DNA of 64,000 bases from Escherichia coli (lineage in GTDB: Bacteria > Pseudomonadota > Gammaproteobacteria > Enterobacterales > Enterobacteriaceae). The stretch lies in NCBI RefSeq assembly GCF_050320075.1, contig NZ_CP190018.1; one strand, written 5' to 3'. The translations under genes were made by a program, and so were the position numbers. This document shows positions 29,798-31,127 of the stretch, one piece after another (within the stretch, counting starts at the first letter, position 1; each line of letters begins with the position of its first letter). Below the pieces are notes generated by a model, which searched no databases, had not been told where the DNA came from, and saw only the letters and a list, made by a program, of their open reading frames with translations.

Positions 29798-29841
29798 TCC
29801 ATTTCACTCCAGACCCTAACTTCAGCTCCTGCAAAATCGCA

Positions 29842-29857
29842 AGGTAAACGTTTGCCT
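29842..29857 (-). promoter_or_regulatory. PurR operator (PUR box) in the purR leader
   Basis: Minus strand reads AGGCAAACGTTTACCT, matching ANGCAAACGTTTNCNT; 45-60 bp upstream of purR ATG. Confidence 0.6.
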
Positions 29858-30066
29858 TTACACACCTTACGCACAACAAAAGTGTTGCGGTACGCCGGAA
29901 AAACGACACGGAGCGTCAGGAAGGGGTCAATGGCCAGTACGCAAATAGTGTAAGCGTGGAATTTTGGCCGATCTTGACGAAAAGGGGAAGTGGTAAAAAC
30001 ACTTATCATTATAAATGACGGGAGATTTTTTCATCACAGTGTGTAAAAATGCGTAATATCACTTTT

Positions 30067-30075
30067 TGTGTGGTA
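30067..30075. repeat. IS1 target-site duplication, left copy TGTGTGGTA
   Basis: Identical 9-mer directly flanks both ends of the element. Confidence 0.9.
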
Positions 30076-30098
30076 GGTGATGCTGCCAACTTACTGAT
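30076..30098. repeat. IS1 left terminal inverted repeat
   Basis: GGTGATGCTGCCAACTTACTGAT. Confidence 0.9.
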
Positions 30099-30130
30099 TT
30101 AGTGTATGATGGTGTTTTTGAGGTGCTCCA

Positions 30131-30406
30131 GTGGCTTCTGTTTCTATCAGCTGTCCCTCCTGTTCAGCTACTGACGGGGTGGTGCGTAACGGCAAAAGCA
30201 CCGCCGGACATCAGCGCTATCTCTGCTCTCACTGCCGTAAAACATGGCAACTGCAGTTCACTTACACCGCTTCTCAACCCGGTACGCACCAGAAAATCAT
30301 TGATATGGCCATGAATGGCGTTGGATGCCGGGCAACTGCCCGCATTATGGGCGTTGGCCTCAACACGATTTTCCGCCATTTAAAAAACTCAGGCCGCAGT
30401 CGGTAA
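30131..30406 (+). CDS. insA: IS1 InsA (DNA-binding inhibitor; N-terminal part of InsAB' transposase), 91 aa
   Basis: [43 protein letters not shown]... zinc-finger and HTH. Confidence 0.97.
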
Positions 30407-30828
30407 CCTCGCGCATACAGCCGGGCAGTGACGTCATCGTCTGCGCGGAAATGGACGAACAGTGGGGATACGTCGGGGCTAAATCGCGCCAGCGCTGGCT
30501 GTTTTACGCGTATGACAGGCTCCGGAAGACGGTTGTTGCGCACGTATTCGGTGAACGCACTATGGCGACGCTGGGGCGTCTTATGAGCCTGCTGTCACCC
30601 TTTGACGTGGTGATATGGATGACGGATGGCTGGCCGCTGTATGAATCCCGCCTGAAGGGAAAGCTGCACGTAATCAGCAAGCGATATACGCAGCGAATTG
30701 AGCGGCATAACCTGAATCTGAGGCAGCACCTGGCACGGCTGGGACGGAAGTCGCTGTCGTTCTCAAAATCGGTGGAGCTGCATGACAAAGTCATCGGGCA
30801 TTATCTGAACATAAAACACTATCAATAA
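30325..30828 (+). CDS. insB: IS1 InsB reading frame, 167 aa; expressed as InsAB' by -1 frameshift
   Basis: [16 protein letters not shown]...; overlaps insA in the -1 frame. Confidence 0.95.
30382..30388 (+). other. IS1 programmed -1 ribosomal frameshift slippery site AAAAAAC
   Basis: A6C heptamer in the insA/insB overlap, read directly. Confidence 0.85.
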
Positions 30829-30843
30829 GTTGGAGTCATTACC
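30821..30843. repeat. IS1 right terminal inverted repeat
   Basis: Reverse complement GGTAATGACTCCAACTTATTGAT is an imperfect match to the left repeat. Confidence 0.9.
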
Positions 30844-30852
30844 TGTGTGGTA
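30844..30852. repeat. IS1 target-site duplication, right copy TGTGTGGTA
   Basis: Identical to 30067-30075. Confidence 0.9.
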
Positions 30853-30872
30853 ATAAAAAAGGAGAAAACTTG

Positions 30873-30962
30873 ATGAGCACCGACCTTAAATTTTCACTGG
30901 TAACAACGATTATCGTCCTCGGTTTGATCGTGGCCGTGGGTTTGACTGCCGCGCTGCACTGA
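30873..30962 (+). CDS. ynhF: small hydrophobic protein YnhF, 29 aa
   Basis: ATG at 30873 preceded by GGAG; single-TM peptide MSTDLKFSLVTTIIVLGLIVAVGLTAALH; not in the ORF track because it is shorter than the track cut-off. Confidence 0.7.
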   Translation: MSTDLKFSLVTTIIVLGLIVAVGLTAALH

Positions 30963-31127
30963 TTTCCTCTCGAGGGAGCGCGTTCTCCCTCGCATCTCCT
31001 TCCTGTTTGTTAGCAAAATGGCAAAAGTGTTTTCTCTTTTTGTTATTTTCATTTTTTTGTGATTGCTGTCATGCTTTCGCCACTTTAATGAATATCGCGT
31101 AATGACGCGAAGAGGTGGAGATAAGGC

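Follow-up and report, generated by a model that had tools for sequence, protein, structure and literature searches.

The 29-codon open reading frame at positions 30873–30962 (+ strand) of the window, the 64-kb stretch of Escherichia coli DNA analyzed here, is cydH; its coding sequence and its ribosome-binding site are both intact in the source strain YZLc1-3, and an IS1 element has inserted within its leader, leaving the whole of the native promoter on the far side of the element. We regard as very probable the reading that combines these features, namely that of a known subunit gene of cytochrome bd-I with IS1 in its leader, which would now be expressed by read-through across the element and likely at a reduced level. 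Neither the gene nor its function is new, and the arrangement is a commonplace IS insertion polymorphism without novelty of kind; it is modestly interesting in that cydH is uncoupled from its promoter and a copy of IS1 comes to lie directly 3' of a low-oxygen-induced promoter.

The identity of the frame is established by several independent comparisons. Reading of the sequence together with a program-made list of open reading frames gives an ATG start at 30873, a TGA stop at 30960–30962 and the product MSTDLKFSLVTTIIVLGLIVAVGLTAALH. The list itself opens the frame one codon before this ATG, at an in-frame TTG (30870), giving 30 aa; the 29-aa ATG form is the chain found in the solved structure. 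Across its 29 residues the peptide shows 100% identity with PDB 6RKO chain H and with chains in 7 other entries, the matching chains being titled [quoted passage not shown], and against the NCBIfam equivalog NF033411 (“cytochrome bd-I oxidase subunit CydH”) it scores 50.2 bits over residues 1–29 of 29, the curated cutoff being 30 bits. A Pfam search with the peptide recovered no family. RefSeq/PGAP places a cydH CDS at identical coordinates in E. coli YZLc1-3, which comes from chicken faeces from Yangzhou (NZ_CP123240.1). The gene order, purR–(IS1)–cydH–ydhP–sodB, puts the gene in the same position as in K-12, as an orphan that is flanked by purR and ydhP and is not part of the cydABX operon. 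A Shine-Dalgarno sequence, AAGGAG (30859–30864, + strand), was read 8 nt 5' of the ATG and stands in conserved upper case in the consensus of the Rfam family STnc550 (see below).

The gene agrees with the CydH/CydY/YnhF of bd-I (6RKO chain H) in its 29-aa sequence, its purR–ydhP position, its Shine-Dalgarno and its stop codon. Relative to the cydH of K-12 MG1655 it has a single difference, a G instead of an A at 30932, which is synonymous in codon 20 (GTG vs. GTA); beyond this, the two differ in the 5'UTR, which is split by IS1 in YZLc1-3 only. On every count that can be tested from its sequence, the product is a member of the CydH/YnhF family. A first-pass annotation, made from the letters alone, had called this frame ynhF and described it as a 29-aa gene at 30873–30962 with a Shine-Dalgarno and a single-transmembrane product. 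The name (now cydH), the coordinates, the translation and the ribosome-binding site are all borne out, and the single transmembrane segment agrees both with the one helix seen in the bd-I cryo-EM structures and with a mean Kyte–Doolittle hydropathy of 2.45 over residues 7–28. Its remark that ORF calling misses the gene is true of naive length thresholds but not of RefSeq/PGAP, which annotates it.

In the cytochrome bd-I quinol oxidase of E. coli, CydH is the fourth subunit, a single transmembrane helix that was an unexpected find in the cryo-EM structures of the enzyme; seated in the cleft between helices 1 and 9 of CydA, it screens heme b595 off from the membrane, and since access to this heme is thereby blocked, O2 reaches heme d via a separate narrow channel (PMC6853902, PMC8951039, PMC12648545, PMC8585947). 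The protein is also described, second-hand in PMC6853902, as being made at low oxygen and as retaining its formyl-Met. As the role of CydH as a bd-I subunit is known, there is no need to show its translation again.

The same locus is matched, on the same strand as cydH, by the Rfam family RF02081 (“STnc550”), at 29798–30177 and 30836–30879. Here the match is split by IS1, and its left part scores 261.4 bits vs. 396.5 bits for the uninterrupted K-12 locus, the gathering threshold being 48 bits. Its 5' part covers the purR–cydH divergent intergenic region left of IS1 (29798–30075, + strand), which contains the purR start at 29955 on the minus strand. Although the family is labelled an enterobacterial sRNA, its 388-nt model comprises the entire purR–cydH intergenic region plus the cydH ORF (29798–30075 and 30853–30965 in the window), and in its consensus across enterobacteria every third base is variable through the ORF; this variation at the third codon position points to coding constraint on cydH. 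The label appears to be wrong, and the family to represent the mRNA of a small protein together with its promoter region. Bit scores far above the gathering threshold, both here and in K-12, could be read as meaning that the locus acts as the non-coding sRNA STnc550 and not as an mRNA. We consider this highly improbable, given the composition of the model, the coding signature of its third-base variation, the physical presence of the protein in solved bd-I structures and a mapped transcription start that gives a short leader of 38 nt. None of the papers searched mentions STnc550. A length of 29 codons is statistically unremarkable in itself, since the 4-kb stretch around cydH is overlapped by 73 ORFs with a length of 20 aa or more; the ORF is real because identity to a solved chain, the equivalog HMM match and the third-codon-position variation in the enterobacterial Rfam consensus all speak for it.

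The element upstream is an intact IS1 of the IS1B type (768 bp, 30076–30843, + strand), co-oriented with cydH. It contains insA (30131–30406), an insB' frame that runs to 30828, the frameshift motif AAAAAAC at 30382, and the ends GGTGATGCTGCCAACTTACTGAT ... ATCAATAAGTTGGAGTCATTACC, which are canonical and carry terminal inverted repeats of ~23 bp. The encoded Pfam domains are the InsA zinc-ribbon and HTH (PF03811, PF12759) and DDE_Tnp_IS1 (PF03400), and RefSeq labels the element [quoted passage not shown]. It is bounded by a perfect 9-bp direct repeat, the target-site duplication TGTGTGGTA, the left copy of which (30067–30075) covers what are nucleotides +10 to +18 in the native cydH transcript, while the right copy occupies 30844–30852. 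Judged by its length, ends, frames, A6C −1 frameshift site, domains and duplication, this is a canonical IS1 by all tests. It is the only copy of IS1 in the 64-kb window. In NZ_CP123240.1, 22 places match an IS1-containing query vs. a median of 11 places per genome, which suggests that the IS1 load of the source chromosome is above average. The junction between IS1 and cydH reads GTTGGAGTCATTACCTGTGTGGTAATAAAAAAGG; a short inverted repeat, TTACC-TGTGT-GGTAA (30839–30853), spans the tip of IS1 and the duplicated target, and in a read-through RNA it is predicted to fold into a hairpin just 5' of the cydH Shine-Dalgarno without occluding it.

Deletion of IS1 with one copy of TGTGTGGTA rebuilds the universal empty site. 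The frequency of the two alleles was determined over the complete E. coli genomes (n = 5,426). The IS1 allele, sought with a 1.5-kb query spanning purR–IS1–cydH–ydhP at a coverage of at least 80%, is found in just one of the 5,426, the source strain, and the reconstructed empty site is uninterrupted in 5,423, in nearly all of them at an identity of at least 99%. Once IS1 and one copy of the duplication are removed, the start codons of purR and ydhP delimit 553 bp with one synonymous mismatch to K-12. By these comparisons the insertion is a genuine transposition that is private to YZLc1-3 among the genomes searched, and it is probably recent. As short ORFs are common by chance and the IS1 allele is a singleton, one could suspect a chance small ORF, or an assembly artefact at the IS1 junction; either is barely credible in the face of the solved-chain identity and the match to a curated equivalog HMM on the one hand, and, on the other, of the perfect 9-bp duplication and the exact rebuilding of the empty site, which are the signature of real transposition.

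The position of the insertion relative to the native promoter follows from a published map. Table S1 of Kim et al. 2012 (PMC3415461) gives a start for ynhF at 1735607 on the minus strand of NC_000913.2 (94 reads, 38-nt 5'UTR), with a −50 to +1 sequence that ends in ...TGTGTAAAAATGCGTAATA. By coordinate mapping this start, measured in K-12, falls at 30058 in the window, 18 bp left of the left end of IS1. In our scan the best −10 match at the right distance from it was the extended −10 TGTAAAAAT (30042–30050), and the −10 motif TGTGTAAAAATG is strongly conserved in the enterobacterial Rfam consensus; the native core promoter of cydH is thus placed at 30042–30058 (+ strand). Since the start is at 30058 and the duplication spans +10 to +18, IS1 separates +18 from +19 in the 38-nt 5'UTR. 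The distance from the native start to the ATG, formerly 38 nt, is now 815 nt, a shift of 777 bp that is made up of the 768-bp IS1 and the duplicated 9 bp. The first-pass annotation had set the IS1 end 29 bp from the ATG, which is exact for the right end of the element, and had the native upstream promoter DNA displaced by 768 bp. The displacement stands, while its size has to be raised to 777 bp to count the duplicated bases, and the promoter has been separated from the gene by an insertion within the 5'UTR and not upstream of the promoter itself.

Scans of the cydH region with ArcA and CRP motifs returned no good site, and a scan for FNR returned only weak FNR-like sites with 2–3 mismatches. 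Counted from the cydH ATG, their centres lie at +3.5 and +26.5 (TTGATGAGCACCGA, with 2 mismatches and overlapping the start codon, and TTCACTGGTAACAA, with 3 mismatches). The FNR ChIP-seq/chip peak “ynhF/purR” of Myers 2013 (~1735542 and 1735575 in.2 coordinates) maps to the first codons of cydH, at 30870–30906 in the window. The FNR-like sites at the start of cydH now lie across IS1, 777 bp further from the cydH and purR promoters. Neither ynhF nor ydhP is mentioned in the ArcA ChIP supplements of PMC3798270. In Table S11 of the FNR supplement, ydhP appears solely as a gene that depends on oxygen in an hns/stpA mutant, which is uninformative on cydH; in a Salmonella study, MarA/RamA were found to bind the purR<>ynhF intergenic region.

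With its promoter beyond the element, cydH would be transcribed mainly as the last cistron of a read-through RNA that crosses insA–insB'. Two promoters would give rise to such an RNA: the native one, whose start lies 18 bp before the left end of IS1, and one within that end. A consensus scan finds there a promoter-like CTGCCA-16-TATGAT in the left inverted repeat (30083–30110, + strand; the −10-like hexamer TATGAT at 30105–30110), which reads towards insA and cydH and which we take to be the known IS1 transposase promoter that is repressed by InsA. InsA binds the left inverted repeat of IS1; bound there it would act as an obstruction, and cydH would probably be partly uncoupled from its normal control. 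Reporter fusions at the right end of IS1 pick up transcription that originates at the IS1 promoter as well as at host promoters further upstream (PMC12428005). The terminator scan found no intrinsic-terminator-like site on the + strand between 30058 and 30962. The insB' region has no C-rich, G-poor stretch, and because it is rich in G and not in C it does not resemble a rut site. Translation would still start from the cydH Shine-Dalgarno itself, for which the predicted unpaired probability is 0.58 in the IS1 read-through RNA vs. 0.39 in the native leader. Read-through is plausible because IS1 is co-oriented with the gene, no terminator is predicted, insB' is not C-rich, fusions detect transcription and the Shine-Dalgarno is accessible. 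The resulting expression of cydH would probably be below normal. On balance we lean towards an allele in which expression is kept but reduced and partly deregulated; we think it unlikely that expression is unchanged, unlikely to the same degree that the gene is essentially silent, and quite unlikely that expression has increased.

IS1 insertions are classically called polar, and a terminator inside the element has been reported; if this is true, so little read-through could occur that cydH would in effect be silent. Under such a scenario the polar IS1 would block the displaced promoter and bd-I would be assembled without CydH. The promoter is indeed 815 nt off, InsA would, by established IS1 biology, bind the left inverted repeat directly 3' of the native start, and the osmB transcript offers a published precedent, being ~4-fold lower with IS1 upstream. 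Moreover, untranslated RNA favours Rho action, and most of insB' is untranslated. Silencing nonetheless appears to us a minority outcome: the + strand of IS1 is devoid of a predicted intrinsic terminator, insB' is rich in G and not in C, and the reporter fusions measure transcription that does arrive at the right end of the element (PMC12428005). Published cases of IS1 upstream of genes include downstream transcripts that are raised, lowered or unchanged (PMC8764528).

A raised transcript would be expected if IS1 activated cydH, with an outward −35 in the element and a −10 in the flank joining into a hybrid promoter that drives the gene constitutively. A −35-like box facing outward is present in the inverted repeats of IS1, and blaTEM, acrEF and afaA are published cases of hybrid promoters of this kind. 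At the present junction a weak candidate can be drawn at 30830–30859 (+ strand): the outward TTGGAG of the right inverted repeat (30830–30835) is 8 bp away from the tip of IS1, a TG motif (TGGTAATAAAAA) occurs in the flank, which is AT-rich, and the possible −10 hexamers AATAAA, ATAAAA and TAAAAA fall at 30852–30859. However, TTGGAG matches TTGACA at just 3/6 positions, and all three hexamers, at spacings of 16–18 bp, are without the conserved final T. A standard promoter scan gave nothing at 30830–30859, and the best nearby hit of a relaxed scan was TGGAGT-17-TAAAAA, with a score of 7. Further, the predicted starts (~30863–30867) would lie inside or after the Shine-Dalgarno, leaving a leader of at most 10 nt with no ribosome-binding site, and according to the published afaA study activation requires an optimally placed −10. 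At the sequence level, the combination of an outward −35, a functional −10 at 16–18 bp and a usable leader was not found at this junction. The hybrid promoter route is unlikely, and activation of cydH by IS1 seems to us very improbable.

Set beside the genes known to be affected by IS1 (blaTEM, acrEF, afaA, osmB and ugd), cydH likewise is itself intact and directly preceded by an intact IS1 whose inverted repeat carries a −35-like box facing outward. It differs from the activating case of afaA in lacking a well-spaced −10 and in that the predicted start would remove the ribosome-binding site. The present case is thus closer to osmB (reduced) or ugd (unchanged) than to afaA (activated).

The preferred reading of reduced expression by read-through can be extended, tentatively and with considerable doubt, to a two-way rewiring, in which the low-oxygen cydH promoter would read into insA–insB' and cydH would become the distal cistron of an InsA-gated IS1 transcript. 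If this were true, the transposase expression of this IS1 copy would become oxygen-responsive, and YZLc1-3 would be a naturally occurring CydH hypomorph, suited to reading out what the bd-I subunit does physiologically. The chicken isolate provides a natural allele with cydH cut off from its promoter, which is usable to gauge the share of CydH in bd-I function and fitness, and to ask whether an IS1 copy changes in activity when a host promoter reads into it. Beyond the correct annotation the significance is small, CydH being established and IS1 insertions near genes being common.

Downstream of the gene, 9 nt 3' of the cydH stop, we noticed an inverted repeat, CGAGGGAG-CGCGTT-CTCCCTCG (30971–30992, + strand), which may be a terminator or a stabilising hairpin. 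The fold of 30955–31015 has −15.8 kcal/mol and a z of −1.57, which is not significant, and the terminator scan made no call at the repeat (30971–30992); as a terminator, the post-stop hairpin is without statistical support.

The insertion may also bear on both neighbouring genes. For purR, Kim 2012 (PMC3415461) gives a start at 1735710 with a 158-nt 5'UTR, which maps to 29955 on the minus strand of the window, 121 bp from IS1. Lying at this distance upstream of the purR start, IS1 could alter the upstream regulatory input to purR. A PurR-box-like palindrome, AGGTAAACGTTTGCCT, is present in the purR 5'UTR at ~29843–29858 (in the region 29840–29960, minus strand). On the other side, the cydH–ydhP spacer of 165 bp is T-rich (30995–31127) and has a promoter-like match on the minus strand only (31072–31045). 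Two very weak starts that Kim 2012 (PMC3415461) assigns to ydhP lie 6 nt and 32 nt past the first base of the cydH ATG, that is, at 30879 and 30905 in the window. The two genes may be partly co-transcribed, in which case IS1 would affect ydhP too.
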